A stretch of 60,532 nucleotides of DNA, the filler included, from Platydemus manokwari (Eukaryota): the NCBI GenBank assembly GCA_037951405.1. It is 5 parts of 5 records of this genome, joined end to end, with 100 filler letters (N's around TTAATTAATTAA, not from the genome) between each part and the next. Parts side by side here need not be neighbours in the genome. Positions count along the whole stretch, not along the records: positions 1 to 13,962 come from JBBMOY011564744.1; 4 more parts are not named here. One strand, written 5' to 3'. Both the position numbers and the translations under genes were made by a program. Shown one piece after another: positions 6,615-58,473 of the stretch. The notes under the pieces are model-generated. The model saw nothing but the letters and a program-made list of their open reading frames with translations, was not told the origin of the DNA and ran no database searches. Within the stretch, counting starts at the first letter, position 1. The number at the start of each line of letters is the position of its first letter.

Positions 6615-7954
6615 TCAATAACGGTAATGATCTGGTTTGAATGGGCCATCCATTGGAATATTCAAATAATCGGCTTGATCTGACAGAATTCTCGTTAATT
6701 TCATACCCAAATGTTCCAGATGAGTTAGAGCCACCTCCTCATCTAATTTCTTAGGTAAGAAATACACACCAACTTTATATTGATCAGTCTTTGTCCACAA
6801 TTCAATTTGTGCAAGAACTTGATTCGTGAATGAATTGCTCATCACAAAACTTGGATGTCCATGAGCACATCCTAAATTCACAAGTCGACCTTCGGCTAAC
6901 AATATTATATGTCGACCATTCTTCAACTTATAACGATCAACTTGAGGTTTGATGGTATCCTTTGATTGACAATTCTCATTCAACCATTTCGTTTCAACTT
7001 CAATATCGAAATGTCCAATATTACAAACAATTGAATCATCGAGCATTTGTTCAAAATGTCGACCAACAATTACATCTTTACAACCACTTGCTGTTACAAA
7101 CAATCTCGCTTTCTTTACTGCCTCCTCAACGGTTGTCACTTCATAACCTTCCATTGCTGCTTGCAATGCATTTATCGGATCAATTTCCGATACAAGTACA
7201 CGACAACCAAATGCTCTTAAAGCTTGACAACAACCTTTTCCAACATCTCCATAACCAGCAACTAAAGCGACTTTTCCTGCTAACATTACATCAGTCGCTC
7301 TTTTGATACCATCGACGAGAGATTCGCGACATCCATACAAATTGTCGAATTTGCTTTTTGTTACGGAATCGTTGACATTGATAGCAGGACATTTTAACTT
7401 TCCATTGGCCATCATTTTATACAGATTATGCACTCCAGTTGTTGTTTCTTCAGAGATGCCTTTAATCGATTTCAGTAAATGTGGATATTTTTCATGGACA
7501 AGATTTGTTAGATCTCCACCATCATCGAGAATCATGTTTAATGGTTGTCCATCGGGGAATATTAATGTTTGTTCCATACACCACAAGTACTCTTCATCTG
7601 TTTCACCTTTCCATGCATATACAGGAACACCAGTTTTAGCAATAGCTGCTGCTGCATGATCTTGAGTACTAAAAATATTACAAGATGACCACTGAACTTG
7701 TGCACCCAGTGCAGTCAAAGTTTCAATTAGAACTGCAGTTTGTACAGTCATGTGTAGACATCCAGCTATTCTTGCACCAGCTAAAGGCTGTTTTGCCCCG
7801 TATACATGCCTCATCATCATAAGACCAGGCATTTCATTTTCTGCTATAATAATTGTTTTACGACCCCATTCAGACAATCCAATATCAGCTGAAAATAATT
7901 TAAGTAAAATTATTGATACTTTTACATACCAACTTTATAAAGCAGTTTATACAT
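6615..7954 (-). CDS. AHCY: S-adenosylhomocysteine hydrolase (adenosylhomocysteinase), 2 exons: 7930..7954 and 6615..7888, 432 aa
   Basis: Motifs [66 protein letters not shown] and C-terminal [10 protein letters not shown]. Micro-exon ATG TAT AAA CTG CTT TAT AAA GTT G|gtatgt joins ttttcag|CT GAT ATT GGA across a 41-nt intron to give [19 protein letters not shown]. Confidence 0.97.
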
Positions 7955-9180
7955 AATAATTTTATCTAAATTTCATGTTAACATTAACATTTGTATAACT
8001 ATTTGAAATTATTTTATAAATAATTAATTAAACAAAATCAAAAATATTGCAAAAACTTAATTGAAATATAATATTTTATAAATAAATAAAAAAACGGTAA
8101 TGTATAAATATTCAATTTACTTCAATAAATCTTTAAATTGAAATATTTTAATAAATTTTTCATTTGAATAATTATGATTTTATTTGATAATATATAATAT
8201 TTAAGTCTACATTAGCAAGAGCTACTTTGAGAGATGTCAGAATCTGAACCGACAAAGAGATTTGTTGGACATTTACAGATTGTTTGAGAGTGAGAAACCT
8301 TTTTAATTGCATTATCCTGATCATTATTTTACACCATTAACTAATTTAATAATTTTTTTTATTAATAATAATATTAGTCCCCTCCATTTGGTTTTTTTAA
8401 ATCATTCGCTTGGATATTTGCATAACTTCCCAGTTATTTGCTGTTTTTTTGTATCTTGTTCAATTTCTACATTTCTTAAACAAATCATATTAATACAAAT
8501 CATCATTTTTTATTTGTCTCTACTCAGATAAAATAAAAGCATTATTATTTATTAATAATGCCTTATGTTCGATACCAAGCAAATTTACTGCAGTGAGACC
8601 AATAATCCTAGCTTCAACAATTAATTTACATAGCCTCAAAACCTTTAGGCATTTCAGTTAAGTTTTCCAATAACTTCGTTCTTATATGAGTTTGAACTGA
8701 ACTCCTTTAGAACCAGTGAGAGCAATCATGAAACATTGTAGTGTTTCTTCTTTGCTTACTTTTTACCCTATGTTGTATATCATGGATTTCCAAAGTCGGC
8801 GGTACCGCCTCATAGTGGGCTTTGCAAGGATCCAGAGAGTCGGTGGTGAATACAAGCTCACTTTGGGGCGATAATACTATAAGAATGTAAGAAAATGATT
8901 ATTAAAAATTTTGATATATCTCGTATGTTCAAAACGCTTAATTTGTCTTTAAATACAGCAGAATCCCCACAATTGCTTAAATCTGATAAATGTCAGTTAG
9001 CTGTTTGTCTAGTAAAGTTTTTTGGCGCTTTGTTCTGTTTCTCCGACTGCTTTTATACTAATTTTCGTTATCTCTGTGCCCAATCATAAATTTTCTAATT
9101 TTGGAATTCTAAAATCCTATTTTTATTTTCTGATCTATTATTGGAATTAATAAATTATATTCTTAGATTCTAATCTATTT

Positions 9181-9501
9181 CTTTCCTGTGTTCCGTCTGG
9201 TTTGGCATACCTTGCAGACTGTACACCATTCGTGTATGTCTTTTTTCATATTTAGCCAATAGTATTTTTGTCAGATACGGCTCATGGTTTTCCTGGCGGG
9301 CAGGTTTCCACCTAAAGTTCCGTCGTGATACTGTAGAAGTACTATATTTCGTAGAACTTGGGGTAAGACGATGAGATTATTGCTATCGGTTTGATACTTC
9401 ACGATATCGGCTTGGATAAGAAATCTTCCTTGTTCTCCTTTGATTTGTTTGAGTTTTTTGTCTAAGACGTAAGGTCTACTCGTTTTGTAATTTCTGACCA
9501 T
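9181..9501 (-). pseudogene. Integrase N-terminal zinc-binding (HHCC-type) region, truncated before the DDE core
   Basis: LIVLPQVLRNIVLLQYHDGTLGGNLPARKTMSRI*QKYYWLNMKKDIHEWCTVCKVCQTRR, with an in-frame stop and the second His replaced by Asn. Confidence 0.85.
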
Positions 9502-10295
9502 TGTTCTGTTTTGTATTCTATTGTTTTTACAATTTGCATAATGTCATCATCCTCTTTTTGCAATGCTGCTATATCATATTGGTTGCTTAATGTTTGGTTA
9601 GCAGTGAGTATAATTTCGGCAGTGACTTCATATTCTGTAGTGTCGGTTCGGGATAATACGTCAGCATTTCCGTTGGCTTTGCCTTTTCTATAGCACAGCT
9701 TGATATTGTATTGTCGTAGCTTTAAAGCCCATCTGATGAGTCTTGAGGCTGTGCCTCTGTGTTGCAACAACCATTGTAAAGGTTTGTGATCTGTGGTTTC
9801 GACTCGTGGTGGGATTTCTCCGGTTTCTCCTACATAAATTTCTGCATCGCCTCGTCTTTTCTGTTTGGCGATGGAAATTAATTTCCCTGTGCTGCAATCG
9901 TACACATTATCTTTCAATTGTTTTATTGCATCTTGTCCAACTACGAAATGAGATAGTGCCCCTGTTGATACTCTGGCTTCGACTGTTAACATCTGATTGC
10001 AGATGTGTAACCTACATGGTAGTATTTCTAATAAAGGCAGTTTTGTTCCATTGATTCCAACTATAAGCAGCTGATTTTCATCTTTAATGAGGTTTTGCAT
10101 TTCTATGTGGTTTAGTATTTCCGACCTGATGATAGTGACATCAGCTCCTGTATCTATGAGTGCCATTACAGAGTGGCGGTTAAGTTTTATCTGCATGAGT
10201 CCATTTCTGCCTGTGCTGGCTACGTGGACGTAATCTACCAATCCTCGCTGGTTTTGTCCTTTGATCCTTATGTCATCTTCCTGGTTGTCGATCAT
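9462..10295 (-). pseudogene. Retropepsin protease fused in frame to the RNase H C-terminus (RT deleted)
   Basis: MALIDTGADVTII...FVVGQDAI (protease), then directly TDHKPLQWLL...RLIRWALKLRQYNIKLCYRKGKANGNADVLSR (Ty3/gypsy RNase H end). Confidence 0.88.
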
Positions 10296-10599
10296 TGCCT
10301 ATAGCTCCGTTGTAGGATAAGTTTTCCGTTTGTCATTTCGAGATTTCCCTACAGGTTCCTTGAATTCTTGTTCATTTGAGTCTCCTTGTCTGATCGGTAT
10401 GTCTTGCTCGACTTGTACTAGGCAATAAGGTGGTGCACTGACTGTTGGCTGGTGCCACTGGATGTCACCATGTGTATTTGTGTACCTTTTGGTTTAATTC
10501 TTTCTGTCCAACTTGTAAATGCGTTGGAATATTCTTCATCGCTTTCGTCATTTGTTGACCATCTTGGTTTCCGGATGGTATGTTGCTTTTCCTCCATCC

Positions 10600-12320
10600 A
10601 CGTTTTCGTTTGTTTTATTTCCCTTCGGTGTTGTGCATGTATAAAGTGGTCGGCGCCGGGTGGACATAGTGCCAATAGAATTCTTCTGGTGCATCCGAAG
10701 GCTCGGTATAATAAAAACGCTGTCATTGCTCGGTGAAAAAAGAATGTTCCAAATGTCATAAAGCTACCCCAAATTTGGTACATGAAATTAACGGCGGCTT
10801 TCATGCAATGTTCGGCGGTAACCAGGTTTTCATAGTCTGATCCTTGATCCATCCTGGTAAATTCGTCTGATTATCTCAGTAATGCCTCAATCCCTTAGTT
10901 GCGGAAACATTAACGCTCGTCTAGCATCTTCGATATCTTTTGAGTTTATCGGTCCTAAACTGACACGTCCCTCTATTTCACTTAGATTTAGTGTCTGTAC
11001 TGGTAGGCGTGGTAATCCTCTTGATAATAGTGTCATCCATGCATTCTTAATCTTGTATAGTGGTGCAAAAAGTGGTGTGCACGTTCCCTTTGTAGGCTTG
11101 GCGTTTGGCTCCAATAGTATCCTGGTAATTGAAACCCTATATCTGCTTTTCCCTTGATACATGACCTTTAATTCGTTTGTGCATTCATGTCCATGAGCCA
11201 TCATGACTTGTACCTCTGTACAGTGAAACTCGTACCAGGCTTCTCCATTTACCTTGCCATATTGTTCTTTTTCCATGATGATGGGTGTGATTAAGTTTGG
11301 ATTCGCTATGGCAATAGCTAGTCGGTTGGCAGTTGACAATTAGTGTTTCCTGGTAGATCTCGAGTAGCTGTGACTGTAAGTCATGGTAGAGGAAGTCTCC
11401 TTTATTGTTCATATAGCTGGCAAGTTTAATGTCATTTTTGTGAAGTGTTTGTGCGTTTTTTAGCTTCTCTTTGCTGTAATAGACACCTTCATAATTGGTA
11501 CTGTGATTGGTGCTTTGGTTACTAGTCGAATGACGTCGGAAGACTTGTTTGACATCAGTATTGTAGATACGGCGCGTTCCTTTCTGTCTGAGCGCTCTGC
11601 AGCTCTTTCTAATTGTTTGTCGGTTACATGGGTGCCTGTTCGTTTCTCATAGACTAGCTTGGTACCAGTTATAGCAATGAATGGTCCGCTTTTAAGTAGT
11701 ATCATTTCACAGTTCTACAATTTCCGTGTTGTAAGTAACACTTTGGGTATTGTGTCATTAATCCGGTTTTGGCATCAAATGTTGCCTCAAAAGAGTGTAG
11801 TTCCACTCGGTTATCTTCAATGGTTACTAACCAGGAGGTAGATACTCCGTCCTGAAACTTGGTTCTTCCGGTACATTCTCTATTATGAGTTATTGTTCCA
11901 CCACTGGTTATTATCTCTTGCGTAATCATGTTTGGTTCTACCGTTAAACTTAGTTCAGTGTCGATACGCAGTTTTTTGGTTACGAATCCATCTCGGTAGT
12001 CGATTGGTGCTATGTTCAATATTCGTGGGATTAGTTTAGCGTCTAGTACCACTGTTCTACTATGGTATCCGCAGTAGTACTCGAAAGTTGCTACCTCAAC
12101 TCGGCATTCTTGTACCATGGCTCGTATGAAGTCATTCTCTTGGTAGATGTAATAAGTGTCTGGTTCACTTTTCTGTAACTGGTGCGGTCGCACGGTTGGG
12201 CAATTTATAGAGTCCACTAGAGAGTAGATATTGGATATCTTTGCTTTTCCGTAATCGTAGGCTTGAAGTAGAGTGGTTTTCCCTATTAGACTCATGATTA
12301 GCAGGATTTTGAGTAGTCCT
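10600..12320 (-). pseudogene. Chuvirus-like envelope glycoprotein of element A (frameshifted)
   Basis: Hydrophobic signal LLKILLIMSLIG, then AYD(Y)G..YSLVDSINCP, ECRVEVATFEYYCGYHS, YMNNKGDFLYH, AIANPNLITPI, GEAWYEFHCTEVQV..HECTNELKVMY, ITRILL, DIEDARRALMFP and TM region WGSFMTFGTFF..FGCTRRILLALCPP. Confidence 0.75.
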
Positions 12321-12385
12321 CCTAAATCGTATCCTTGGTTGCTTGAGTGTTTTATGTTTGCTTTATGTTTATCTGGCTTTCGGTT

Positions 12386-12765
12386 TAAGGTGGTCCATCC
12401 ACCTTTGTCTTCTAACCATTGGATTAGGTATCTTTGGCACGTCTGCGATGCTTGCATAACGACATCTTTAAAATGACTCGGTTCCTGATAGGATGAGGTG
12501 ATGATCTGCTGTATCAGGTATGTGAGGGCTACTTTTACGCTCTCCAGGGTCAGTCCTTCCTGAGTTAGTTCAGCTATTATGGTACGTGGGTTGGCATCTC
12601 CCTGGTTTAGTATCTGTTTCATCTTTAGCAGGTATCTTCGGATTGAGCGTATAACCCTTTCGTGCCCGTCGGTTTCTTGGTTAGGGATTCGCGGATTATG
12701 CTGTTCTACCCCGTGTGGTAATGTTAACAAGATTGTTTGGATATCCGTCTCTCGGGTATCGTGGT
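12386..12765 (-). other. Bcl-2-fold-like domain in the element A polyprotein
   Basis: BH4-like HDTRETDIQTILLTLPHG, BH1-position AELTQEGLTLESV (NWGR absent) and BH2-like RYLIQWLEDKGGWTTL with near Bcl-2 spacing, followed by a hydrophobic tail. Confidence 0.6.
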
Positions 12766-13259
12766 TAGCGTCTGCTACTTTTCTCAGGATTTTTGCCTGG
12801 ATTTTGGCGCAAGTCTTCTCGTTTCGTTCCTCCATGAAAGGTGGTCTACCTCGTTTCCGTTTGTTGAACGCTTGTGATTCGGTTTCTAATTCGTGCATGA
12901 TTTTCGTGATAGGTTCGATCTTGTTTTAGATTTGAACCTCTACGGGGACGTTTTCTTAGAGTTCGGTGAGGCCCTTGACGATTGGTGTGTTTAAAAATGC
13001 ATCCAAGTCGACCTCGTAGTTTGGCTGGATCTCGTTTGGTGGATCCGTATTGATTGTCCGGGCCCTTCTGGTTCGGGCGGTCTCGGAAGTGTGATAGTGG
13101 CTCGTTTCCACTAGTACTGGTATTGATTTGGCTGTGGTGATGTGCCCAGGCAGGCATCCTACATTGACCAAGTATTCATCGTCATCTACAGGGTGTTCCC
13201 ATATTGCCATGACGAATGGTTCCCGTACGGGTTGTGCTTTCTTGATGACGGTTCTCAGC

Positions 13260-13511
13260 CGTTTTACTTTGCAATAAATAGATTGCTGTGTTTCCAATGC
13301 TCCGAATTCTGGAGTGTGAATCTGCATTCTGACGCAACAGTGGGCTGTGACTCATCAGATGTCCGTTTTTCTGCAGAAATAGTTGGATTTCTACTTGGTA
13401 CTCAGAAGGCTTTCTGAGTTGCGTTACTAGCATTAGTGCTACTTTGTCTATGATATCGGTTGGCACGATGACTTGAATTATGTCTCCAAGCATTTGCTTG
13501 ATCCTTGTGGT
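13260..13511 (-). other. Ubiquitin-like domain in element A
   Basis: TRIKQMLGDIIQVIVPTDIIDKVALML aligns with ubiquitin [28 protein letters not shown]. It is followed by QLFLQKNGHLMSHSPLLRQ. Confidence 0.55.
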
Positions 13512-13724
13512 GTCATTCTGTTGCAGGGTCCTTTCTAGTTCCTGTCGTAGGCGTTCTGCCTTAGTCATCTGGATTGTGACAAGGACGTTTTCAGTTGTGA
13601 TAACTGTAATTGGCTCTGAGTCACCGGCAATGTGCTCCTCTTCTGCGGTCATCACTCTGTCAGCTCCTGTGTTGGCTGGTCACGAGTGGCCTCGTTCAGC
13701 TCCGGTATTGGCTGGTAACGAGTG

Positions 13725-13897
13725 AGTAGTATGTTATGTCAGTGTTTGGCGCCACCTCCCTCAAATTCTCAATTTACAAAACTATCAATTTTTCTAATCT
13801 AGTATACCCCATTGACCCCCCAACTCGCATATTTTGCAATCCATCAGTCTATCAAACTATCAAACTATCAGGCCAAACACTGACATAACATACTACT
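13725..13897. mobile_element. 173-bp MITE-like element with perfect 26-bp terminal inverted repeats
   Basis: agtagtatgttatgtcagtgtttggc (13725-13750) is the exact reverse complement of gccaaacactgacataacatactact (13872-13897). No clear target-site duplication. Confidence 0.75.
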
Positions 13898-13962
13898 ATA
13901 AACTCCTATTTTTCGGCGATTGGAAAACATAATAATAATTTAAAATCCTAATATAAAAAGTG

Positions 13963-14062
13963 NNNNNNNNNNNNNNNNNNNNNNNNNNNNNNNNNNNNNN
14001 NNNNNNTTAATTAATTAANNNNNNNNNNNNNNNNNNNNNNNNNNNNNNNNNNNNNNNNNNNN
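13963..14062. other. Artificial contig spacer
   Basis: 100 nt of N with central TTAATTAATTAA (stops in all six frames). Confidence 0.97.
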
Positions 14063-15799: not shown

Positions 15800-16410
15800 A
15801 TGGACAAATAATCACGTGAATTGCTAAATGCTATTGTTCCATTTTTAAAGTTTATTAGACCCTTGTCGGGAGATCTGCAAGGTCCTTTGTTAAAAATGTA
15901 AGATACCTGGGCCTAATGGTCTAGCAACTACACAGATAGGTTACTAAAAGACTGTTAATTACCTAATTAATAGTGAAGATTTTTGAAATAATAAAATTAC
16001 TGGTGTCACGTTACAAAGATAAAAATAATTTTTCTTTTTAGTTGGTGAACTTTGTTTACGCAGGAACGACTTTAAATAGGTTACATGATTCAGACAATGC
16101 TTGAATGTGAAGTAGTTTTTTTGCTTTCAAAAATCAATAGAATTGAAATTTATCAATAGTAGAGAGTTTACAAATAATTTATGGGTTTTTCAGTATAATT
16201 CGTTTTTGGGCCTATTTATGAGTCATTTATTCCTTTTTATAAGGTTATCTTTATGTTTTCTAACTTATCATCTTATAGATTATTATTGAATTTTTTATAC
16301 TATTTTTGGACTTTTTAAATTCTATTTTTGTAATTATTAATTTGTTATTTCTATTTTTAGGATTATTTAATCACATTTATATTAACTTTTATGTCTTCTA
16401 TTTGTAGGAG
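15800..16410. repeat. Interspersed repeat, diverged copy of the 33.1-34.1 kb LTR-like unit
   Basis: Shared colinear blocks such as gcaactacacaga and gtttacgcagg..ctttaaatag..ttcagacaa..cttga in both regions. Confidence 0.65.
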
Positions 16411-17261: not shown

Positions 17262-20200
17262 TTATAAAACAGCAGTTTCATCTCTGGATAATGTCAGTTT
17301 CGGTTTGATCTGCATGGTCATTAATTCCTGGAGCAACAATTTTGTTGCATATGGCATGATCACCGATGACACGTGTTGACTGGATCTGCACATCTGGCAC
17401 CAATCTTTGCTCGTGGCAAGTAATCCACACTGCTCACAAACGTATGTTCTAAACGGATCACTGCTCAATAACATACGCTCTTTAAGAATTTGCGTTGCAC
17501 CATAGCCAATCAAACAATCGCGTTCCATCTCACCAACTCTCAAACCACCATCCTGAGCTCGACCAACAACCGGTTGTCTTGTTAACGGTTGATTTTTACC
17601 CGTCGATCTGGCATGGACCTTGTCTTGTACCATGTGCTTCAATCTTTGGTAAAATACGGGCCCCATATAAATATCTGCCTCCATTATTTTACCATTGATG
17701 CCACACGTTAAAATCTCTTTTCCTGACATAGAAAATCCCTTGGATCGCATCACTGTTGGATAATCATCGTCGATATTTTTGTGTCCAGCTGTACTGAATA
17801 CTGAACTGTCTCGTATTTGACCATCAAATACCGCACACTTGTTAGCCAATAACTCCAACAATTTCCCGACTGTCATTCTGCTTGGGAAACCATGGGGATT
17901 CATGATCACATCTGGCACTAATCCATCTTCCGTGTACGGCATTTCTTCCAACGGTACAACACGTCCAATGACACCTTTTTGACCATGTCTACTGCTGAGT
18001 TTGTCTCCGATTTCCGGCTGTCTATTTTGACTAGTTTTGACACGCACAAGCGTGTATCCGTGTTCTTCTTGAGTGAACATGACTTGGGTACACTGTGTCC
18101 TTTCGGAGCCATGATATACGGTCGGAGATGGTTTTGGACCAGAATCGGGAATTTTCACTGGATCCGATGAAATCAGTGGGTCTTTTTCGGGTGTTGTAAG
18201 CTTATGTATGAGGACGTCTCCATTTTCGATGAATTTTCCAATCATTGAAGTACCATCGGCTTCGAGTGCGTGTTGCCTAGAATCTAAACAAAAATACCCA
18301 TGAATCAATAACAATGTCGAATGAATCAGATGAAGAGATTCTTATTTCTGTCATCGAATAGTAAAACATAAAGAAACAAGTTCAAAATAAAATAATTTTT
18401 AAAAAAAATAAAAATAAGAAAAAAATAAAAATAAGAAAAAATAAAAATAAGAAAAAATATAAATTACTTTTAATAGCAGGGACACCAAGATCGTCGTTAT
18501 CCTTTAAAATATCAGAAAAGCTCTTATTTGTCAAGCTCCTGAAAATACCGCGCTCTAAAGATGCTTTATTAACGATAAGAGCGTCTTCAATATCATGACC
18601 ACCGAAACATGTGATAGCTACAATAGCATTCTGACCAGCGGGTAACTCATTATATTCCACCAGATTACCGATATTACTTAGTGTCAATGGTCGCTGAGGC
18701 GTTACCAAAATGTGCTGTGTACCATCGGATCTGATTCGTTGATTATTGGATATCACACCGAGAGCTTGTTTACCCATAGCACATTGATATGTGTTTCTGG
18801 GACTTTGATTATGATGTGGAAAAGGAATCAAACTGGCCACTGCACCGAGAGCAGTAGCTGGATCGATATCTAGATGTGTATGATTGTTTGTGATATCATT
18901 TTCAGTAGCAGCTAATAAGCATTCTGCATAACCCTCTCTGGCGTCCAAATATTCAACAACACCTCGTTTGACAAGCTCATTCCATGGCATTAACCCATTG
19001 GCGAGTTTTTCTTTGATTTCATTGGTCAATCTGCTCTTACCATTCTCAACAATGATATACGGTCTCACCATTCGTCCACTATCACTGCAAACATGCAACG
19101 TTTCAACTTCTTCTTCATAATAAATCGAAACATGTTCATGTATATCGCCCTGTCGTCTTAAACATCTCAAATAATGACCGAGTTCTTTCGGTTTATCCGT
19201 CCAACCAATCGGAACACCGTTCAACATAATCACATACATGCCTGCATGATACTCGAATGTAGTCAAATCATCACCATAATTTTCCCGTATTCTCTGTTCC
19301 AAATCCAAATGAGGCAAATCGACGGTGATTTCCACCATGAAAGCCAGATTTTTCACCAAACCACACGCTTCACCTTCTGGAGTATCAGCGGGACAAACGA
19401 ACCCATACTGACTCAGATGTATTGCTCGAGCTCCTGATATTTTTCGAACCTTTTCAAATTGACTGTTTATTCTACCCAAATGTCCGAGAGTAGCGATAAA
19501 ACTCAATCGGTTCAAAACTTGTGTGACACCTGTTCGGTTCATTGCAAAACGTTGGAAATTCCAGTTGCCGGTGTAAATACATTGAAACATGCCATCGGTT
19601 ATATATGATTCTCGTATCATATTACAAGGTTCAAGAGCCATTGCTTTCTTTGTGGAAAGGTTTTTCATCAGTTCCATCTTAAGTGAACCAACGAACGATT
19701 GGAATCTATCTTCGAAAGCCAACGACAAGTACGATCCTACGAGCTCGATACGCTTAACACCATAAAAATCACGATCATCCGGCGATATTAAACCTTTTTC
19801 TGCGAGTAAAATACGCCGAACCATAAATCCCAAATATTTGGCCCTGTGAGTCATATTGTCCGAGCTACCTTTAACGTGATTCAACACTCTCCGATTCAAC
19901 TCTTGTTTGGCCATCAACAAACTTCGTTCTTCCTCTTCCAAAGACGTTGGATTGATTGTCATTTTATTCTCTTTATTCGATGCCAGTTTTATTTTTGGAA
20001 TTAACCACATTATTGCCTGTTTTTGGGAAAATATTTCGAAACTAATAGCTTCTTTGGCGCTGCAAATAAGTTCATTGTGGAGTTCATATTCGACACCGAC
20101 AGATTCGAAAATATCTTTGTGTGCTGGCATATTTAATGCAGCAAATAGTATAAATAATGGAATTGATTCGTTGAAAAGAGAATTTTGAACATAGAAATAG

Positions 20201-20841
20201 CCATTATTTTTGAAAACTGTGGTTTTGGATTTATTTTCTATGGTAAAACTAACAACATGACACACTATTTCAGGATCAGGCAATTTCTCTGACAAAGGTA
20301 CTTTGATTCCTCCTTTCTTTGTGATTTTTTGCTTTTCAATAATCATACGGTTTTTTGCCATTTGTTCCTGCATAAGAAAAACTCTTTCAGTTCCTTTCGT
20401 AATGAAATATCCACCAGTATCATGAATACATTCGCCTTGTTGAATTAATTGTTCGGTAGTTTTACCATACAAATGACATTTGTTTGATCGAAGCATGATT
20501 GGAATTCTTCCTATGATCACATTTTCTTTTTTAATGATTTTATCATTTCCAGGATATTTAACATCAACAGTCACATCACTAGCATAAGTTAAATTTCTCA
20601 ACCGACACTGATGAGGAAAAACCGGTAGCTTTGATCGTCCTTGTTCAACAATAGTTGGAAAGCCCACGTTAATATTTGAAAATTCAACAAACCATTTAAG
20701 AGAAGGTAACTCTATTTTTCCGTGAGTTTTAACGATTTTTTTCATGTCGACATCAACAAAATGGTTAAATGAATCTAAATGATGTCGAACCAAACTATGC
20801 GAATCATGATATAATTTAACTAGCTGATATTTTGGATCCAT
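17262..20841 (-). CDS. POLR3B: RNA polymerase III second-largest subunit RPC2 (divergent), exons 18468..20841 and 17262..18283, about 1131 aa
   Basis: HLDSFNHFV, PHQCRLRNLTY, CPADTPEGEACGLVKNL, IPFPHHNQSPRNTYQCAMGKQA, DIEDA, GDKLSSRHGQKG, MNPHGFPSRMTVG, GGLRVGEMERDCL and C-terminal Zn ribbon. The 184-nt GT..AG phase-1 intron (18284-18467) restores the frame. Confidence 0.9.
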
Positions 20842-23288
20842 AGACTTTATAAAAATTTAAAAAACACAAATTAAAATATATAATTACAATTTGATATAAA
20901 TTATGAATATTATTTAAACAATTTTTTAATTAAATATTTTAAAAATTAATTTTTTCAAGTTTATATTAATCTTAGTTTATTTATTTTAAAAATAGTTTAA
21001 TAAATTTAACTTATGTATTTTAAATTTAATTATTTTATAATTAACTTAAAATTCATTCACGATTGACAAAGTTATTAATTTTCGAATATGAAATGTTTTA
21101 ATTTAATCAATTCTATAAAAAATGTCTTGTCATTCGAAGCAAACAAAACATGGTTATTTTATTTAAATTTGAGTTAAATATCCCAACATGTCTAAAACTG
21201 ATTTCCAAATATCTTTCTAAATTATATAAAATATTCTGTACATGGTTATATGCGTAACCATTAAAGATTGTTTTCGATTATAGAAATTAATTAACATTTT
21301 GAATGTCAATACTAAGCAATATTACAATTATTTTTCATTAATTAATTTTAATAAGTTTATTAAAATAACAAGTTGACGAAATTCAATCCATGATATTTTA
21401 ATTAAATTAAAATTAAGTATTATATTGTGAGTGCAGTGATAAGGACAACCGAGAATTGCGTAAAATTAATTAAATAAAATATATAACTAAGAAACAGAAA
21501 TTAGCAAAAATAAGGTAATAGTAGTAATAATAAACAATTATTTGTAGGAATGCGCAATGAAGATAGAATGTAGAAACTATCCTACCATTAATTCCATAAA
21601 TAAATATCAGTGATCACAGATTCAAGAGCGAGTAAGTTAACGAATAAATAAACGGAAGTAATTACAAAGCAATTTGAATTTGGTAACATACAAATCCCTA
21701 AGTAAAAGGACACGGGAAAAAGTGATATCAATAAGAGAATATGGAGGAATAAATTCTGGATCTGGATGTCAATTCTTAATCTGAGCGTTCAAACAAATCA
21801 CGATGAACTTCAGTACTATTAATAATAATAACCATTTGCATATTGTCTATATTACATTCTGCCTTTTTTTTATCTCTGTGATTAACAGCTATTTACTCTT
21901 GCTTTTTCTAGTTATATGAATTACCTGCTTTTTATTCACATATGTAGTGTAATTAGTTTATGAAATTTAGATTTGTAAAGTATTCCAAATTGTTTAATAA
22001 GAATTAATACAGTAATTATGGGCGAATATTACACCATCGAAACCTATGATCATATTTATTTCTAATCATATTTTATTTCTTCCATTTCCTAGGATTAATT
22101 TTTATAGACAAAGTGGCAAGGTTGGAAGAATTTATAATATATAGAAAAGATCTAGCGACACGACAAAATCAAAATATTAACCCCTAATTTAAAAAAAATC
22201 TAAGATTTTAAAATTTTAATTTTTTTTAATTTATTATTTACAGCACCCACTTGCTCGTTCATTTAATAATAATAAATATAATCAATTTAGATTTTTTTAA
22301 AGAAATGTCACCATGGGGTCTACTATTTTTTCCCTATTATATATATATATATATATAATTCATATATATAATTCATGGTATATATAATTCATTTAATTAA
22401 AAATTAATTAAAAAATTAATATTTTATTTGAATGCTAGATTTGGAATATTATTTATTCGTTCTATCATCTCATTATTAGCAATATGTTGATTTTGGAAAT
22501 GTTTGGAAATTTGTTGCATTGGAATTTTACTTTTTGCGATTCTATTTTTTGACTGATGTTATTCTTTTGGAATCGGAGGAATACTTAATAATACGATTTC
22601 ATTATAATTCTTAAGAATCTTGTGATAATTTTGTAAAAATTTCTAAAGATTTTTTATTGTGTCACAAAATTCATGTCCGAGATCAGTTTTCTCATATGAA
22701 TTTAAGCTTTTAAAATAAATTTCAGCAGATTGACAACCAGTGGAAAATTTATTCATAAAATCTCCTTCAAAATCAAAGCCTCTTATCAAATAGACCTAAT
22801 GGATTAAAAGTTCTATTACATTTATTCGTATATTTATTGATCTATTTATTCATACTTTATATATTTATTTATATTATATTTATTCTTTTCATATTTTACT
22901 TTTAAGATTTATAATTTTTTTATTACAAGATTTCCAAGAATATTTATTCATTTTAATGTGTATTGGGTTTTAAAATTACTCTAAATATTCAAAACCATGC
23001 GTTCGCGTTTACTATTTTGATTTACTACCAGTCTCAACTTTTACAGCTAATAATCTATCTCATTAAATGTGCAAAACTATTTTTGTTTACTCGAAAACTA
23101 ATTCATATCCAACAAAATAACTGCAAATTCGATTATGACAATATTAGTAAGAGAATTTTCAAATTTTAACTTTTAATAATAGAAGATTTTTTATTACAGA
23201 AATTTATTTAAATTATCATGATGATCCTTCAATATGGAATTTGCCAGTAATTTATGATATATTATCTGTAGAAATATATATGATAATG

Positions 23289-24453: not shown

Positions 24454-25339
24454 TGTGGAATCCGACCTTACTTTACACATTAAACTATGATACAATCATA
24501 AATATATATAAAAATAAAAAGAATATTAAAAACATAAAAAAAATTAATTTTAAAAATTCTTAGATTAGATAGAAAAAATAAAATGAATAAAATTCAAAAA
24601 TTTTCATATTAAATTATTTAAAAATAAATAGAACAAAAATTTTATTTTTATAACAAATTCTTTGTTTAAATGATCTCAAGGTCACCCCGGTATAACCCAA
24701 GGTCAAAAGCAAGAAATTATTTCAAAATCTATTTTTAGTAACCACGTCAGTACTAAAAGTAGTGTAGGTCAATTTAGCATCTCAAGTAGCTAAAAATAGT
24801 AGGCTGTTGCTAAATTTAGACATGACTTCTAGAGAGCTCCTAAATTTAAAAACAAAAGAAGACTAAAAATTAACACACCAATATGACGCATGAGACCCAC
24901 AAAATCAGCATATAATAGGAAGCAAATTCAGTTTGATTGCAATTTATCATATGCGATTAATTCAGTTATTTTTCAAAATTTTAACGCATGATTCAAATTT
25001 GATTATTCCGACGACAAGCGAAACCTTTTTATCGAAGAAAAATTCAGACGAATCAATTACTGTTTATCAATTATTGAAGAAGAATTCAAACTCATCCATT
25101 TTATCTATAAATTGAAAAAGCATTCGAAAGACTCAGTTTATTTTCCACTATTATTTTGAAGAAGCATACAGCGAATCATTTTAATTTTCTTTCGAATTCC
25201 GAATCCGTCTATTTTAATTTGCAACAATCATGAGTAAAATTTTGTTTTTATTATGCTCCCATAACTATCTCAATAGCTGTGTGGTTGTTCTAAATTTACT
25301 AGGTTCTACTTATTATCTCCCACCTTTATTTTAACCACA
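24454..25339 (+). repeat. LTR-like repeat beginning TGTGGAATCCGACC (second copy starts at 60399)
   Basis: The first ~130 nt resemble 60399-60532. TGTGG...CCACA inverted termini are a candidate; no TSD, so the right boundary is uncertain. Confidence 0.5.
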
Positions 25340-33098: not shown

Positions 33099-34058
33099 TG
33101 TAAGGGCTTAAACAAATATAATATGCATAATACATAAATACCCTATATATTGTTCGGTTTTGGTCGGTTTAAATTTCAGAAGGTTTTTAAGCTCGTAGAG
33201 TTTTACACAATTTACGCCTGACTTCAAAGGCGCTGTAAAAATAATGATAGAAATAATTTAAATATGAATAAATGAACACAATAGATAAGAATATATATAT
33301 AATCCAAATCATATTACAAATATATAATCACAACCATGAATTACAATAGTTAATTATTAATTAATATAAACAAATAACCAGGTAAATTAATCAGGACGTT
33401 TATTAATTAACGACTATTGTTATCTTGTGTGAATTTAATTGTCCCTTGTGTGGAGAGCTACAAAGTTCTCCTTGGGACCTAATAGTCCGGCAACTACACA
33501 GACAAGATTTCGATAATTGAAACAAGTTAAGTTTTAATGAAATAGTGGTTGAGTGGGGCCCAAGATAATGTTAATAGCAATTGTTATATTATTTAACATG
33601 TGTATAATATGAAAAGTTATAAAATTGATAAAATTACTTATTTCGCGTTGCGAAGACAAAAATGTTTTCTTCTTTCTAGCAAGTGTACTGTGTTTACGCA
33701 GGTCGGCTTTAAATAGTTTCCTGTTTCAGACAACACTTGAGTTTCTTCTAAGTAAAATAGTGGTTTTCTTCTACAAATCATTAAAGTTATTATTTGTCAA
33801 CGTCGTCGAAAATTTTTACAATAATTTGTAGGAGTTTGTCCAATAAATAAAATAATTTATGAGTGTAGTTATGCGTCATCACTTTCTTTTTATATTGTTA
33901 TTCCTCTCCTTTCTGGCCTATCATCTTATTAGATTATTATTATATTTTCTTTATACTATTTTTGTACTCCAACGTTTTTATAATTCTATTTTTATAATTA
34001 TTAAATTATTTTTATTTACTTTTAGACTTAATCTTTATTATATTTAGTAAATATTACA
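33099..34058. repeat. LTR-like unit of about 960 bp with TGTAA...TTACA termini
   Basis: 5-bp inverted TG..CA termini and homology to 15.8-16.4 kb. No TSD seen. Confidence 0.5.
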
Positions 34059-34820: not shown

Positions 34821-35916
34821 TCATTGACGTAAAGCTGCTAATCTGAAAAATAAATAAATAATTTTTAAAAGGCTATTAAAAAAAAATTTCAAAATATCTC
34901 CTGGACCCATACTGGTTACCAGGCAACCAACTGCATTAACTTTAACATTTAAGTCCATTAAAAATAACAAATTTAAGGCATTTAACATAATATTTTACTG
35001 CCAACCTCTTAGTCAAATCATCTTCTTTAGCAGCCTCTCTTTCTGAAGACCGTGAACCGGAAATTAATGAGCCTTCGTTCAACTTCAAATTAGTCAAATC
35101 GTTCATAACTTCTAATCCATTTTCTTCAGCCACTTGTTTGATTAATGAATTAACTTGATCTTCTGGTGCGGACAAAGTAACAGCGTTTCCCATAGCATTT
35201 TCAACTGTTGATGTTCGAACATCGAGATCTTCAAATTGTCTCTCAAATTTCGACATGATTCGATCTATTTTTTCCAAATCCATGGAAGCCATTGCTTTTT
35301 CCAGATCTTTGGTTACATTTTGAATGCCATGAGTAACCTTATTTTATGAAAATTAATTTTAATGTCATCTTAAGCATTAATTTAAAAACAAAAATTAATT
35401 TAGTACATCAGTTAATTTAAAAAAATCGGAAAATTTATAATTTCATAAAAACTTAACAATAGACATTAAGATATGACATTTGGTCAATATACCTGTTTCA
35501 TTGTTATAGCAGTTTGAATTCTTGAGGAGACAGCATCTAATTTTGAAGATAATCTCATATAATTAAGGCATTCATTCTTCTTCCTAATAGCATTTTCTGC
35601 ATAAATTTTTGCACCTTCAATATTTTTTTGGAGTAAAGCCTAAGGCTTTAAATTGAAAGTAACTATTAAAAATATCCGATAACCTACTTTCTTCACCTTT
35701 CCTTGCTCGACTAATTGCTCCTTTTCAGCTTTTTTAGCAAATCTATCAATTTGTTTACCTGAAAACTATTTTTATCTTACATTTAAAAAGAAATCAATTT
35801 GTTAAATTACTTTCAACTGAAAAAGTGTTTCTAAATTAATTAAAAAATTCTATTAAAATGATGAAATATTAATTAATAAGATAACCATCTAGATTTGGTT
35901 TATTGAAGCTAAACAT
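34821..35916 (-). CDS. CHMP1A: ESCRT-III subunit CHMP1 (CHMP1A-like), exons 35886..35916, 35811..35830, 35688..35765, 35493..35639, 35006..35337, 34821..34842; 209 aa
   Basis: Spliced product reads ..[72 protein letters not shown] (MIM1 tail). All introns are GT..AG and in phase. Confidence 0.93.
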
Positions 35917-49662: not shown

Positions 49663-49894
49663 TCAATACTACATAATTATAAATAACATAAAATCAATAT
49701 CTATATAATAATTTGAATGATATTTAATATATCCATTAAGTCATTCACAAAATTTGTTTAACATATTTATAAATTCTCATCTTAATCGTTACCATAACAA
49801 TCATGTAATTGATTATCATCGTGCTCAAAATTATTACCCAATAATATATAACATATAATAGATCTTTCCATTGCATTGGAGTTTTCGGTAGCTA

Positions 49895-51784: not shown

Positions 51785-52711
51785 TTAAAATTGAAAATCA
51801 TCTGTCATTTCTATCCTGTTTTGTATGACTTCCGTCGTCCCTACGTCATATTCATGTTTTGCCATAATATCGTCATATTTGTCTATTATCTCTTGTAATC
51901 TCTGATTTTCTTTCTCGGTTAAATTTTCTTCTGCTATTTTGATCTTTGGATAATGTTTTATTTCTCCCAATACTGCAAATTGGTTGCTATTAATTACTTT
52001 AGCTTTTACACATCTTCCTAATACCATTCCTGATCGCAATATTTTGATATTGTTCCCATAATTGGTAACTCTTAATGGATAATATCCATTCTGTGCTGTA
52101 GCTAAAACCGAACTCATCTGAATCTCATCATCTATCTGTCGTGGTTCAAACATTAATGTTTCATTCGTGGCTTCCACCGCAATCATCAATACGCTTCCAC
52201 ATCTTGCTGGTAGCCGAACTATCTCTTGTATTCTTAGCTTATCGTCTTTATGCTGGGGTGCTTGTTTATATGATATTTGTAACGTTGTTAAATCCAGGAC
52301 TACTCCTGTTAACTGTCCCAACAAATCCATTAATATTAGTATGTCGTTTAATCCTTCTGTTACCACCTTAAATTCGTGATCTATTTGTATGTTTCCGAAC
52401 GCTATATTTATCTTCACTTTCCCAGCTGTTTCAATCCTTTTCTCTCCTGCTCTTACGAGAACATCTTTATCTCTACTTATCTTTGTTTGTTCATATTCAT
52501 TGAGTAATTCCTTTCTAATCATTGATGCCTCTGCGTCTGTGTCTATTAAGGCTCTTGCCGGCCTATTGTTCATCAATACTGTTACTATGAGCCTACGTCC
52601 CTTACCTGTTGCTGAATGTATGGTGTATACTTGTTTTACATTGCTGATTAATGGATCTCTTATTTCACTCATCATCTGTTTTTCTATCGCGTATGGGTAG
52701 TACTCATTCAT
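51785..52711 (-). pseudogene. Retropepsin protease and pre-RT linker of element B
   Basis: RALIDTDAEASMI (DTG changed to DTD), DILILMDLL, then LQEIIDKYDDIMAKHEYDVGTTEVIQNRIEMTDD, the typical lead-in to gypsy RT, where the element is cut off. Confidence 0.85.
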
Positions 52712-52902
52712 TTTCCTATATCCTGGTATCGGTTGTTCAAATAGCTTCTCTTTTCTCCCTCTATATCTTACTTCCCAGTCATCATATCCCTACGGGTAAT
52801 TTGAAGGCATTTCTAGTCTCATCATAGGATTATAGAACCCCTGATTCGTCATTTGTTGATTATACACCCCTTTATTTATTGGATTGTACATTCCTAACTC
52901 AT

Positions 52903-54830
52903 TCATCGACCACATTCCTCCTCCTCTAGCCTGTTTGGTATCTGCTTTATCTGCTCCATCTCACTCTTATGATGTGTTAGCATCATAAGCTTAGCTATTG
53001 GCGGACATATGCAACATAGTATTTTCCATAAACATCCAAAAATTTCTTGTAGCGTTTTCCCCGTAATTAGTGATGAAAATACCATTTTTATTATTACCAC
53101 TATATAATATATTCCCAGAAAGAAGGAAAATATTGTTCCTATTTCCTGGAATCTTCCATATAAACTCTTAAATAGTTATTTTACTGCTTGATTGAAATGA
53201 TCCACCGATAACAAGGCTTCATAATTTAAGGTCTCGTCTGGGCTTCCTCCTAATATTCGTTGTATCATATTCATGATTACTTTTTCTCGTTATATTGGGA
53301 ACAGCATATATTTTCGTGCTTTCTCTATGTTTTCTGCTGCATAAATTCCACTTTCATTCATGTCGTTAAATGGTTGAAATTCTATGTTCCCTGTTACTCC
53401 TGAGCTTTTTAGAATTAATATGTCCGCTCTTGATTTCTTATTCTCCGTCGACACCCATCTTCCATAATCTGTTTTAAATACTGGATCCATAACGTTTGAA
53501 CACGCGTCTATTCTCGCGACCTTGTAATGATTCTTGTTACTAATTATAAAAATACTCTCTTGTTGTTGTATATGATTGGTATCTCGTTGGTGCAGTATTC
53601 ATGTTTTCTGATCACTAAGTTGTTTACCATTTTACATTAGAAAGTATAAATGACTTCTCCCACTACTCTAGCAAATGTACCTTTATCGTCAAATATTAAT
53701 GGGGCTATCAATTCTGGATTTTTTACCGTCAATGCCATCTTTGTTTGTAGCACCTTACGCCTTAGCTTACAATCATTTAACATTATTTCTATGTACATTT
53801 TCTCTAGGTACCCCTGATTAAGGTGGTAAAAGTAATCAAGCTTGTTGATAAAATACTGAGATAACTTAATATCCAATTGATCTACCTCTGTCTTAGCATC
53901 TTTTATTTTGTTCTTACTCAGATATATTCCTTTATAGTTCGTCACTATAACTTACTGTGCACATTCCTTTGTGCACAAACCTCATGGCACTGCTTGTTTG
54001 ATCCGCCATGTATACTATTGGTGGTTCTTTCATTCTGATTTCTACCGTTTCCGTTGGTGTGTCTAGATTTAATTCCTTGGAAAATTTTGTTTCCTTAAAT
54101 ATTTTTCCTTTTATTTCTCTAAATTCCGTTTTTTTGAGCAATGTCAGTGGACTCTTATACGGATTGCTCTTGTACATTATTAGTGATTCCCCCGTATCAC
54201 ATGTTGAATTATCGTATTCGCAATGTGTCCATGTGGTCATTTTCCTTGTTTTTCCATCAAAAGTGGTTTGATATTCTCGCAATTCTATAATATAGTGCCT
54301 GTATGTCATTACATGTTTTACTACCTTTCCATCTATCATGCAATTTCCTCCTTCGGAATATGCCCCATTACTAGACCAACCTGCTTGATTTACTGTGTAC
54401 CTGTTTATTCGTACTGGTGACACCACTACTTGTATTCCTTTTGGTGTTTGGTAAATTCCCTTCTCAAATGCAGCTTTATAACTTTCCACTGACGGTATTT
54501 CTGGTACTAGTAACCATGCCAGCACCAGTGTTACTGTGTATCATATTCTCTTATATGAACAATGAAAAGCACTTAATGATATACAATCTTACATTCCTTT
54601 GCTTTTTCAAACAGAAACTCAGATTCCTAATATACATACATTTCCTTTGGTCTTGACTGTATAATATTTACTGGATATGCCTCTGGGCATTGTTCAATAT
54701 CCAATAGTGAATATTTCTTTCCCCATCGTGGTTTGCCGCAGTCATATCCACTTATTCCGGCATTCGCGCCCCCTATACTGCTTATTACGTATATTGCGAA
54801 TAACGTCTGGACTATTGTTGCCAGTGTAGA
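52903..54830 (-). pseudogene. Chuvirus-like envelope glycoprotein of element B (frameshifted)
   Basis: Signal TLATIVQTLFAIYVISSIGGANAG, then GYDCGKPRWGKKYSLLDIEQCP, HCEYDNSTCDTG, YFINKLDYFYH, NDCKLRRKVLQTKMALTVKNPELIAPLI, ARVVGEVIYTF, GIYAAENIEKARKYMLFP and TM YGRFQEIGTIFSFFLGIYYIVVIIK..FGCLWKILCCICPP. Confidence 0.8.
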
Positions 54831-55694
54831 CCCTGCTCCCCGTACTAGTTTTTCGCGCTCTGGCTTTTTCACTCCCTTTAATAACGTAGTAACCACTGTA
54901 GTCCATCCTCCTAATTCATTTACCATGTCTTCGTATTCATCGTATATTATTTCTGCTCCTTGATCAATACTTACCTTTGTCTTTGGTCTCTGCATTAGTT
55001 TATTGTGCCGTATGTGTTTGTTGACTTTCGTTCAATAATTCTTGATCAAAAATATTGGAATAGCTCTTCATGATTATCATATCTTTAATGATTTTCCTCT
55101 CCCAGCACTTCTGGCAACTCCTCCGTTCGTAATTCTTCTCCTGGTGGCTTTGATACATTTTTTTCCTCATCACTTATTTCTTCTAATGATGTCATCCTCT
55201 TCTTCTATTGCCTTACTACATTCTCCTTCCTTATACGGATACACTATCTTCTTCCTCAACACCCTTTCCTGTTCTTTACTGGTATTGTTTTCTAATTCCA
55301 GTGCCTCTTTTCGTTCCTCTTGTATTTGTTTTATTACATTTTCTCGCGGTTCCCCTTTCTCTGTTGTATTTTCCTTATTTGGGCATTTATGTTTTTGCTT
55401 CTCTATACATCCTAAACATAAGTATCTTTTCTCTATCTCCTTTTGGAGCTGACTTTTCGGCATTCTTTCCATAATGTCCAATGAACTATCTCTTCCTTTC
55501 GTTCTTAATTCCAGCGCCTTTAGGAAATCTTCGCAGGAATTCAATTCACTTGATTTGGAATTTGACGACTTATAGCTAGGTGATTTTTCTTCATTAGCTT
55601 TTGTTGCTGCGGTGACTTCTTCTTCATCCAAATCTACTCCTATTATTTGATTGGCATTTATATATAGTTCCCTTATTTCTTTTTCGACCGGTTC

Positions 55695-58473
55695 TTTATA
55701 CTTGATTAGGACTCCTAAATTATTTAAAATTGTACGATTCAAATGATACTGTTCTAGCAGATACCTGCTTCTCAGTCTTATCCCCTTATTGTAAATCGTG
55801 ATACTTAGTTTATTGACATGTTCTCTCATTAAAAATTTTTGTCTATTATATTCCTTCATTGTTTTCACTACCACGTCTCCTGGCCAACTCATTATGTGAT
55901 CTTTCTCTTCTGTCCACGGGCTTTCCCATATTCGTAATTTGAATGGGTAGCAATTATAATCCATTCTACCTCTGTGTCTTAAGTAGACATAATTTACTCT
56001 TCTTTCTGATAACTTGTAGTCCTTTAATTGACTCCCTTCCACAAATAACTCTTCACTATTCGTTCTCTTTGAATGATGATACGTGAGATATCCATTTTCA
56101 TTCCTATCTGGCCATAGCTCATCTGCCCAATTTAATATAAATCGGATTTCTGCCTTTTCTAACTTTTCAGTTTTTCCACATGTGGCTGTCCATGCTGTCT
56201 TGGCACCAAATGCAAATCTATTATTCGTTGATTATTTATTGTTGCAGGTAACTTTTCCTATTTTACATCATGTGTGAATGGTAACTCTGGAATGGTTGTC
56301 CTGTGAAATGTCAAAGATCTCCATTTAAAGAATGTTCTGGATTTTCGGGGCTTCCATGTTGATCCTTCCCCTTGATGGATCATGACCTCTACAACATTTC
56401 GTCTTCTTCTTTTTATTAAATAATGCCTGCATGTTTTATCATCTTCCATAAACATCCCGTGGTGTATTAATTCCACTAGGAATGGTTTGAATGTCGCGAA
56501 CGGCCACATTGCTGTTGCCATTTGTCGAAACCTTCGTATACTTTCTACTTCGCTTACCATTACCACTCTTATTTGGTGCTGTTGCAGTATACTGGTCATC
56601 ATCATTACTGCTTCAGCCAATTCATCCTTATTCTGTTCATTTGTATTACTATCTGTTGGGGCCTGGGTTGTTGTTGCTTTTTCTGTTGCCATTCTGCTGA
56701 TTCCTGTTCTCCTCCTGGTTGCTCATCTTCACTACTGTCTCCGTCTGAGCCTTCTTTATTTATCATATTAATTTGTAAAATTATCTTGGCCTCCTCTGTT
56801 ATTATATCGATGGCTAAACATCAATTTCCCTGGTCTTTCTTTATGTATTCTCCTATACATTTCCACTCTGTCATACCTTTGTCCTTGAAACTCATTTTCA
56901 CCTTTCCTTTTATTTTTTTCCAACTCCTCCGGCCAATCCAATATTATCAACTTCCTAATCAGTTGGACTGATGTAGACATATTTAATTCCATGTCTTGTT
57001 GCACTTGCTTTCCTTCACTATCCTGTATTATTAATATAAATTTCCTCTTAATCCCGTTATATTTATTGGTGTCTCCTTGAGGGAATTCTCTTTCCCTTTC
57101 CTTCAGTTGTCCCCTTTAGGCCTGTCTCCACAAATCAAATTGTTTTCCTTGCTCGTACCGTATTATTAATTTATTAAATTCATATATAATTTCCTCTGTC
57201 ATATTTATCCTTTATAACTTCTCCCGTATTCTATACGCTTATCTTTCCACACAATAAGGGTTTGTGAAGTATTTTCTCTCCTTAAGCTGTGGATATTTGA
57301 ATGCTATTACCTCTTGACTCATTTCGATTGCATCCGTTCTTGCTACTCCATTTTTACTAACTTTTCTTCTATTTTGTCGAGTCTGTCCATCCATATGGAA
57401 TCTGGCCTCATCTAAAATTCATGACATTGCCGTCTCTTTTTCCATGCTTGATTTATTTTTATGTCTTTCCGTCTTAATACCGTTCGCATCTTTCTTGTGT
57501 CCCTACCGTGATTCTCTCTTCTCCGAATATTGATATTATTGCTTGAATCCGTTCCATTTCATCTCTTGCATCTGGTTTCCTGATACAACTCATCATATTT
57601 ACTTCCTTCGTCTCCTTTTTTTGTTTCTTCCGCCATTCTCTTTTTTTATAATAATATGCACTATAATGCGCAATTATGGTTAACTCATTATGCGTTTTTT
57701 GCGTCATCCCTAAATCACTTAATATCACCTCTTCTTAGACTGGTGTTCCCTTATGCCATGCTTCCACTCAGCATTCAGGATCTTCCTCATTTGGCCAAAA
57801 ACCAAACGTCCATTGCAATATTTCGCTTATGCTTGAATCTTCATCTACCGTAAGTGATTTTATTGTTGCTCTCCCTTTATTATTTCACTGTTAGCTTTCT
57901 TTCTTCGTGCACCAATTTTTCACAATGACTTCATGGGTATAATTTTACAATCCCGTTTTCTATTATTCCATTTGGATATCTCTTCGGGTTTTTCATTACC
58001 ACTATTTTGTTTATCTGTCCACGTCATCCTTGCATGAACATCATTATTTCATCTAAACCCAGTACCCATTCATCCGTCCATCCTGTATACTTATATTTCC
58101 ATCTCCTCTCCATTAACAATTCCAATTTTGGTACCGTCTCTTTTCCTTTAGTAGTTATCCACTCACAATGACTATCCTCCTCTTCACTAACCATTTGGAA
58201 TTCTATTATCACTTTTCCTTCTGATTTTCTTAGATTCTCTCTTCCTCTTTCTATATCATCAAAAGCTGTTCCTCCTCTAACTGTAACTTTTATCTGTCCC
58301 CTATGTCCATACACCGGTTGTGTTTTTATCTTTATTTGCTCAGCTTCCCATAACACCGGACATCGTTTAGCTATGTCTCTGTATATTTTATTCATTGAAT
58401 CATTCAAATTTATTTCTACATAAATTTGTTTCTTAACTCCATATCTATCTTTAACCAGGATTGCCAATTCATA
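55695..58473 (-). other. Array of up to five ubiquitin-fold domains (about 58190-58473, 57665-57900, 56770-57050, 55975-56225, 55695-55946)
   Basis: Each unit shows strand-strand-helix plus, in four, a ubiquitin-like G-x2-L-x5-L-x2-Y/L end: HKGTPV*EEVILSDLGM, FKDKGMTEWKCIGEY, FVEGSQLKDYKL..VYLRHRG and NKGIRLRSRYLLEQYHL. A helix-terminal WP/CP occurs in four units. Confidence 0.55.

Follow-up and report, generated by a model that had tools for sequence, protein, structure and literature searches.

A Bcl-2-like domain ahead of the envelope protein in a decayed Burro-type retrotransposon of Platydemus manokwari

Two decayed elements and their surroundings

The window analysed here, a 60,532-nucleotide stretch of the Platydemus manokwari genome assembly GCA_037951405.1 (five parts joined by filler), is AT-rich, has intron-poor host genes, and carries two decayed Ty3/gypsy elements, A and B, both on the minus strand (Table 1). 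Env precedes the protease in both elements (by Pfam, and by tblastn and blastp with intact relatives), and reverse transcriptase is absent from both window copies. Read in its own direction, element A encodes a ubiquitin-like domain, the Bcl-2-like domain, a signal helix, a gB-type env, a protease and pol remnants. Its 5' end (capsid, zinc knuckles and LTR) is lost at the gap beginning at 13944, and repeat searches of the window, where that gap cuts the 5' end, found no LTR pair for it. A Pfam search found no MATH, BIR, ankyrin or dUTPase domain in the window, from which the regions that might carry them are partly missing. Element A is interrupted by stops and frameshifts; since reverse transcriptase and the integrase core are absent and env is in four pieces, it is a dead copy, one that cannot transpose. 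Very probably, this is the dead remnant of a Ty3/gypsy GAG-ENV-POL element of Burro type, from a lineage that took up a Bcl-2-family domain in the distant past and carries it in frame between the ubiquitin-like domain and the env signal helix.

Three of the four env pieces match PF24664 (E 1e-13, 9e-15 and 0.039), and env is also detected by tblastn with intact relatives. The hydrophobic helix ahead of it, about 25 residues past the BH2-like motif, is a candidate tail anchor of the Bcl-2-like domain; a similar helix stands ahead of env in relatives whether or not they have the Bcl-2 motif. Some relatives, for example P0007 and P0020 (P numbers denote relative proteins throughout), are single polyproteins with env in frame between gag and pol. 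Several aspartic-protease domains per polyprotein are seen by Pfam in P0007, P0013, P0019 and P0002, with up to 4 stretches in P0007. CCHC knuckles (Pfam zf-CCHC) lie in P0007 upstream of residues 419-473, the part matched by the helical segment of element A. The basic GRP motif of element A is one that we take to be AT-hook-like. The ubiquitin-like domain shares the frame of the Bcl-2/env ORF, with stops between them. Alone it has no Pfam match, and an Atlas search with this piece returned none; a five-sequence profile of the domain ranks the ubiquilin-2 UBL first at a moderate E of 0.008. Ubiquitin-like domains also lie upstream of the Bcl-2-like domain in P0016 (residues about 1030-1113) and P0006 (473-522). 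A Gly-Gly pair follows the one in P0016, possibly, if speculatively, a signal for cleavage by a host protease.

The last helix and the BH2-like motif are the sole parts of element B's domain in frame, and that domain alone scores 4.9 bits (E 0.82 window-wide). Residues 91-216 of P0002 align to element B at 33% identity, across motif, signal and env start. The upstream part of the element (55170-60532, minus strand) has an Asn/Arg-rich stretch, several ORFs of 100-350 aa, a Cys-rich knuckle-like motif near 55420 and a possible second ubiquitin/SUMO-like domain at 56771-57115 (Rad60-SLD_2, E 0.09). This part has no Pfam match at cut-off and may hold further cargo.

Each of the gaps, at 13944-14062 and at about 23289, 36445 and 50462, holds an all-frame stop linker between runs of N, so adjacency across the gaps may be artificial. 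At element A's cut 5' end, a perfect 26-bp inverted repeat (13725-13750 and 13872-13897) lies beside a short tandem duplication and represents a rearrangement or an assembly artefact. Two pairs of dispersed repeats occur, 60399-60532 with 24454-24587 (77% identical), which could be an LTR or leader of element B's family, and 15968-16360 with 33605-34025 (71% identical). Nearly intron-free host genes lie at 6615-7934, 17262-20856, 27125-29515, 34942-35343 and 39022-39939; Pfam labels among them are adenosylhomocysteinase, an Rpb2-family polymerase subunit (in two pieces) and CC2D1, and the host ORFs presumably also include CHMP1-like and GPCR-like ones. A 198-aa ORF (49782-50378, minus strand) has no Pfam match, and we assume its likeness to be to a Polinton/Maverick minor capsid protein.

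Table 1. Features of elements A and B, with positions counted along the window
Feature	Position	Strand	Evidence or remark
Element A, decayed Burro-type GAG-ENV-POL Ty3/gypsy	about 8700..13943	-	3' boundary approximate
Helical segment downstream of Gag	13185..13679	-	matches P0007 residues 419-473, blastp E 1e-4
Ubiquitin-like domain	13091..13339	-	49% identical to P0007 over 41 aa
Basic GRP motif	12842..12859	-	also upstream of env in P0006, P0007, P0013, P0019
Bcl-2-like domain	12386..12757	-	Pfam, HMMER vs PDB, Atlas, alignment, profiles; all helical in model
BH1-equivalent position	12536..12553	-	NWGR absent
BH2-like motif W-x-x-x-x-G-G-W	12386..12430	-	G-W invariant in 7/7 aligned sequences
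Hydrophobic helix, env signal sequence	12260..12325	-	hydropathy 2.15 over 15 residues
gB-type (class III) env	10421..12259	-	four ORF pieces: 11705-12259, 11188-11646, 10890-11339, 10421-10870
Aspartic protease joined directly to RNase H end	9465..10298	-	Pfam; blastp vs intact polyproteins; reverse transcriptase missing
Integrase zinc-binding remnant	9166..9426	-	tblastn E 1e-11 to 1e-29; integrase core not found
Element B	51788 to window end	-	runs off window
Element B ubiquitin-like domain, upstream of BH2-like motif	56357..56596	-	Pfam ubiquitin E 0.014-0.049, below cut-off
Element B last helix and BH2-like motif	54888..54986	-	55 residues before env; stops upstream of 55031
Element B signal helix, broken gB-type env, protease	51788..54827	-	env 52942-54746, protease 51797-52693

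The domain, its relatives and its predicted fold

The initial annotation had recognised a Bcl-2-like domain from two short peptides, and both do lie at this place, in the minus-strand frame 11702-12925. Taken alone, the 128-residue segment has Pfam Bcl-2 as its first match (E 0.005, 17.8 bits, below the curated cut-off of 31.4 bits); without the BH2 region there is no Pfam Bcl-2 match. Its best E against PDB sequences is 0.36, and all 29 of the matches listed up to E 10 are Bcl-2 proteins. HMMER pairs segment residues 61-125 with Bcl-2 helices 4-8 across a one-residue gap (E 0.36 alone), in agreement with the claimed spacing to within one residue, and aligns the BH2-like motif to the BH2 of Bcl-2. 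The Atlas look-alikes of the segment are Bcl-2-like 15, BID and Bcl-G (score 0.86-0.89 over the three, 0.88-0.89 for the first two), at a low level of recognition and as a lead only.

Other details of that first comparison fared unevenly. The suggested likeness to BH4 holds by position, but no alignment tool paired the peptide with BH4, and HMMER put BH4 on another helix (-1.0 bits). The scattered S, E, S and D identities are not conserved among relatives in the seven-sequence alignment. The loss of the BH1 NWGR motif was correctly read: none of the six sequences that reach the site, the window's among them, has its Trp or its Gly. The position of the BH1 Arg is occupied by Lys or Arg in each of the five relatives that cover it, and the window copy has no basic residue there. 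Helices stand at the expected places for BH4 and BH3 in the profile alignment and the model, with no scored motif match and no BH3 signature seen.

An exhaustive search with the ORF yielded 50 relative proteins (E 0.001 or lower). In 38 of them the start of env could be placed, and 16 have 100 or more residues upstream. A BH2-like motif stands 52-82 residues before env in six of these 16, and a seventh, shorter relative has one 47 residues before env. The motif is missing from the other 10 of the 16, and is therefore dispensable. GGW occurs nine times in 31,585 residues (the 50 relatives and two window pieces), eight of these at 47-82 aa before env. Conservation of GGW among family copies is seen at 47-82 residues before env in seven relatives and in element B, which does keep it at the same position, as first claimed. 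A six-frame count of the motif in the window finds 2 against 0.03 expected, a circular figure given that the pattern was derived from the same sequences; plain GGW occurs 2 times where 0.89 would be expected. Parts of the ORF gave no match in two word-indexed homolog searches of longer proteins, and a word-indexed search with the profile returned P0039 as its sole hit.

The window was aligned with six of the seven motif-bearing relatives (P0031 being left out as too short), which are 14-22% identical to it, and retention of the motif across sequences this divergent implies selection. Since the six were chosen by the GGW motif, a match to BH2 is favoured from the outset. A profile built from the six relatives, with the window left out, recovers the window segment (42 bits, E 3e-12), and leave-one-out profiles recover every member, with domains of 105-135 residues in P0002, P0006, P0016, P0026 and the window (18-67 bits). 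The seven-sequence profile, which contains retroelements only and no known Bcl-2, ranks Bcl-xL first among solved structures (E 9e-5; aligned positions 43-143 of 149, from helix 2/3 to helix 8), and its best matches are the pro-survival proteins Bcl-xL, Bcl-2 and A1. Pfam Bcl-2 (PF00452) matches all seven aligned members (best E 2e-5), with every score short of the 31.4-bit cut-off. The alignment shows BH2 and the buried core positions retained, and helices 2-3 are poorly conserved.

The single-sequence model is poor (pLDDT 46), and its globin matches (Z up to 6.9) were set aside as noise. The seven-sequence model, made from a shallow alignment, consists of helices throughout, and their order is as expected (pLDDT 68, pTM 0.50). 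It does not reproduce the Bcl-2 packing: the first Foldseek match is to Bcl-2, but at E 0.34 (TM 0.32, rmsd 6.6), and neither PDB nor the viral library gives one that reaches E 0.001, the top viral fold match being a lancelet adintovirus Bcl2 at a non-significant E of 0.23. The best VIA-align match of this model is an unrelated chain (Z 6.8, rmsd 3.3, 71 aligned), and Bcl-2 chains are absent among its best 50.

The env tree has 34 rows, of which 17 carry no label; one of these is P0017, where the front end resembles a fused protein of unrelated origin. Across the 17 labelled rows, 3 changes of the motif label are required, and 9 of 500 shuffles are as low. All 8 motif bearers fall in one weakly supported group (91/85), together with 5 non-bearers. 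A single gain of the motif followed by losses is compatible with this tree, which allows that history rather than showing it. At the motif, P0007 has the variant GEW and the sisters P0013 and P0019 have the helix alone, which is consistent with erosion.

Candidate roles of the domain

Because element A is dead, it protects no cell today unless its ORF has been co-opted, of which there is no sign. For intact relatives, our best guess, held at about even confidence, is a pro-survival role in which the domain would bind BH3 motifs; an anti-apoptotic role is plausible. What is observed in those relatives is the domain order, the single reading frame and the hydrophobic helix between the BH2-like motif and env. 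Points in favour of this role are the identity of the closest solved structures, the retained basic residue and the BIR domain of Burro (PMC6431247). Counting against it, no model reproduced the Bcl-2 bundle, the Pfam scores are all below cut-off, BH1 Trp and Gly are lost, there is no BH3 signature, the window copy is without the basic residue, and the motif is dispensable.

Cellular and viral Bcl-2 proteins are membrane-anchored by a tail helix (PMC11209288). The env signal helix stands at the position of that anchor, and the expected product of cleavage is therefore a Bcl-2-like protein on the cytosolic side, anchored in the membrane. Going by what is generally known of polyproteins and signal peptides, the helix would enter the ER membrane, signal peptidase would cut on the luminal side and free Env into the lumen, and the upstream piece would remain cytosolic, held at the membrane by the helix much as Bcl-2 is by its tail. 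Release of the domain from Gag could be the work of the element's protease or of a host ubiquitin-type protease. The domain would then serve as a pro-survival decoy for the BH3 motifs of Bak/Bax-like or BH3-only proteins, keeping cells alive while they make fusogenic Env and integrate new copies. Against this, an ER signal helix would not by default give mitochondrial targeting. The full proposal for intact Burro-type elements is that a single helix is both the signal sequence of Env and the tail anchor of a working viral-style Bcl-2. Each Env made would leave behind one ER-anchored death inhibitor whose groove is non-canonical, having lost BH1 Trp-Gly and retained the basic residue; the inhibitor would be tied to fusogen output and would act in long-lived stem cells. 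In that specific form we offer the proposal tentatively, as doubtful on balance. A literature search (subscription journals lay mostly outside its coverage) found neither a functional test of the Burro Bcl-2-like domain nor a proposal that the Env signal helix is its anchor. Against the literature covered, the new part here is the anchoring idea, itself an inference.

A different job for the same fold is possible, if unlikely. Here the BH3 groove would be closed, and the domain would be non-apoptotic, either a scaffold blocking innate-immune or stress signalling or a cytosolic leader linking Env to Gag in budding. Vaccinia A46/A52/K7-type proteins are scaffolds that block such signalling. Loss of BH1 Trp-Gly and poor conservation of helices 2-3, with buried core and BH2 nonetheless kept, would suit such a job, as would the atypical nature of the nearest Atlas clusters (Bcl-2-like 15, BID, Bcl-G) and the fusion of the domain to the Env leader, flanked by ubiquitin-like and, in Burro, MATH/TRAF domains (PMC6431247). 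However, the top profile matches are to pro-survival Bcl-xL, Bcl-2 and A1, and all five relatives covering the BH1 Arg position have a basic residue; many env relatives lack the domain, which disfavours an essential assembly role.

It is improbable that the domain is a relic, a captured Bcl-2 gene eroding to a linker in which the last helix and the BH2-like motif linger. Element B does retain just those parts, GEW in P0007 and the bare helix in P0013 and P0019 point the same way, the Pfam match goes once BH2 is removed, and the env tree needs 3 label changes; yet recovery of 105-135-residue domains by leave-one-out profiles (18-67 bits) at 14-22% identity argues for long-term conservation and not drift. 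Least credible, and very unlikely in our judgement, is a convergent or chance likeness, in which a helical domain of other descent happens to end in a motif of this kind: the single-sequence E-values are weak (0.005 for Pfam, 0.36 for PDB), selection of the six relatives by GGW favoured the BH2 match, and fold searches gave no Bcl-2 match above noise, but the alignment runs some 70-100 positions upstream of BH2 in register, four methods (Pfam, HMMER vs PDB, Atlas and Foldseek) rank Bcl-2 first, and others annotated BCL2 at the same position in Burro (PMC6431247).

A small family alignment now exists for a domain previously just named in annotation, and with it come concrete predictions, namely that the Env signal helix anchors the domain in the membrane, that the BH1 groove is altered and that several lineages have lost the domain. 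Should the domain turn out to be anti-apoptotic, a reverse-transcribing element would be the carrier of a vBcl-2, which could be tested in planarians, since Burro expression and RNAi are already established there (PMC8532177).

Burro and other known systems

According to section 7 of PMC6431247, BCL-2 in planarian Burro polyproteins is preceded by a ubiquitin/SUMO-like domain and followed by env, after which comes the protease. The BCL2-like motif is attributed there to Grohme et al. 2018; the paper also describes MATH/TRAF domains and BIR, another anti-apoptotic domain, in Burro, and already proposes interference with host apoptosis as worth testing. A Bcl-2-like domain before env is real and already described in kind; since the arrangement was published, the finding itself is no discovery. 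Sequence profiles and conservation across relatives both support a Bcl-2-derived domain directly before env, as the initial annotation had it, but this is not new. Burro (GYPSM1 and Burro-1 to -4, giant gypsy-like LTR retrotransposons of planarians) has the same ubiquitin/SUMO-like, BCL2-like, mononegavirus-like fusion env and protease domains in one frame between gag and pol (PMC6431247), whereas the window copies are broken and truncated, and are likened to Burro by its described domain order.

GAG-ENV-POL elements of gB type are found in flatworms, nematodes and bryozoans (PMC13524379). Smed_errantivirus_4 of Schmidtea mediterranea (HSV/gB-type env) has this same gene order, and the start of its ectodomain is identical to the element A env at 29 of 44 positions, ungapped and counted by eye; no comparable likeness is seen in the nematode rows of that page (PMC13524379). 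Judged against these planarian and nematode rows, the element A env appears to belong with the planarian C1a group, and by itself this makes a planarian-like host likely. Spans listed for the Schmidtea GAG-ENV-POL elements are 14.5-18 kb (PMC13524379), which would fit Burro's 4,873-aa ORF. Searches for Bcl in the accessible parts of PMC13524379 and for Burro in those of its supplements gave 0 matches; the rows there start inside env, where an upstream domain is invisible. The Dingle elements of the annelid Dimorphilus are likewise Ty3/gypsy with a gB-like env, but that env is downstream of integrase, and Bcl is unmentioned in the main text (PMC7854359); identity with Dingle was rejected on this gene order.

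With the Bcl-2 family the element domain shares the BH2-like motif, the helix order and a hydrophobic helix after BH2. It differs in having no NWGR and no clear BH3 or BH4, in lying within a polyprotein, and in that its trailing helix is the env signal sequence. Contact between the BH1 Arg and the BH3 Asp is a hallmark interaction, and orf virus ORFV125 retains both Gly and Arg of the BH1 motif (PMC7719400). The parallel first drawn between the loss of NWGR and viral mimics holds in part: the elements lose the Gly that ORFV125 keeps. The dsDNA-virus Bcl-2 proteins (ORFV125, vaccinia F1L and those of iridoviruses and adintoviruses) differ from the element domain as stand-alone genes of DNA viruses; like it, they are divergent, captured Bcl-2 proteins in selfish elements.
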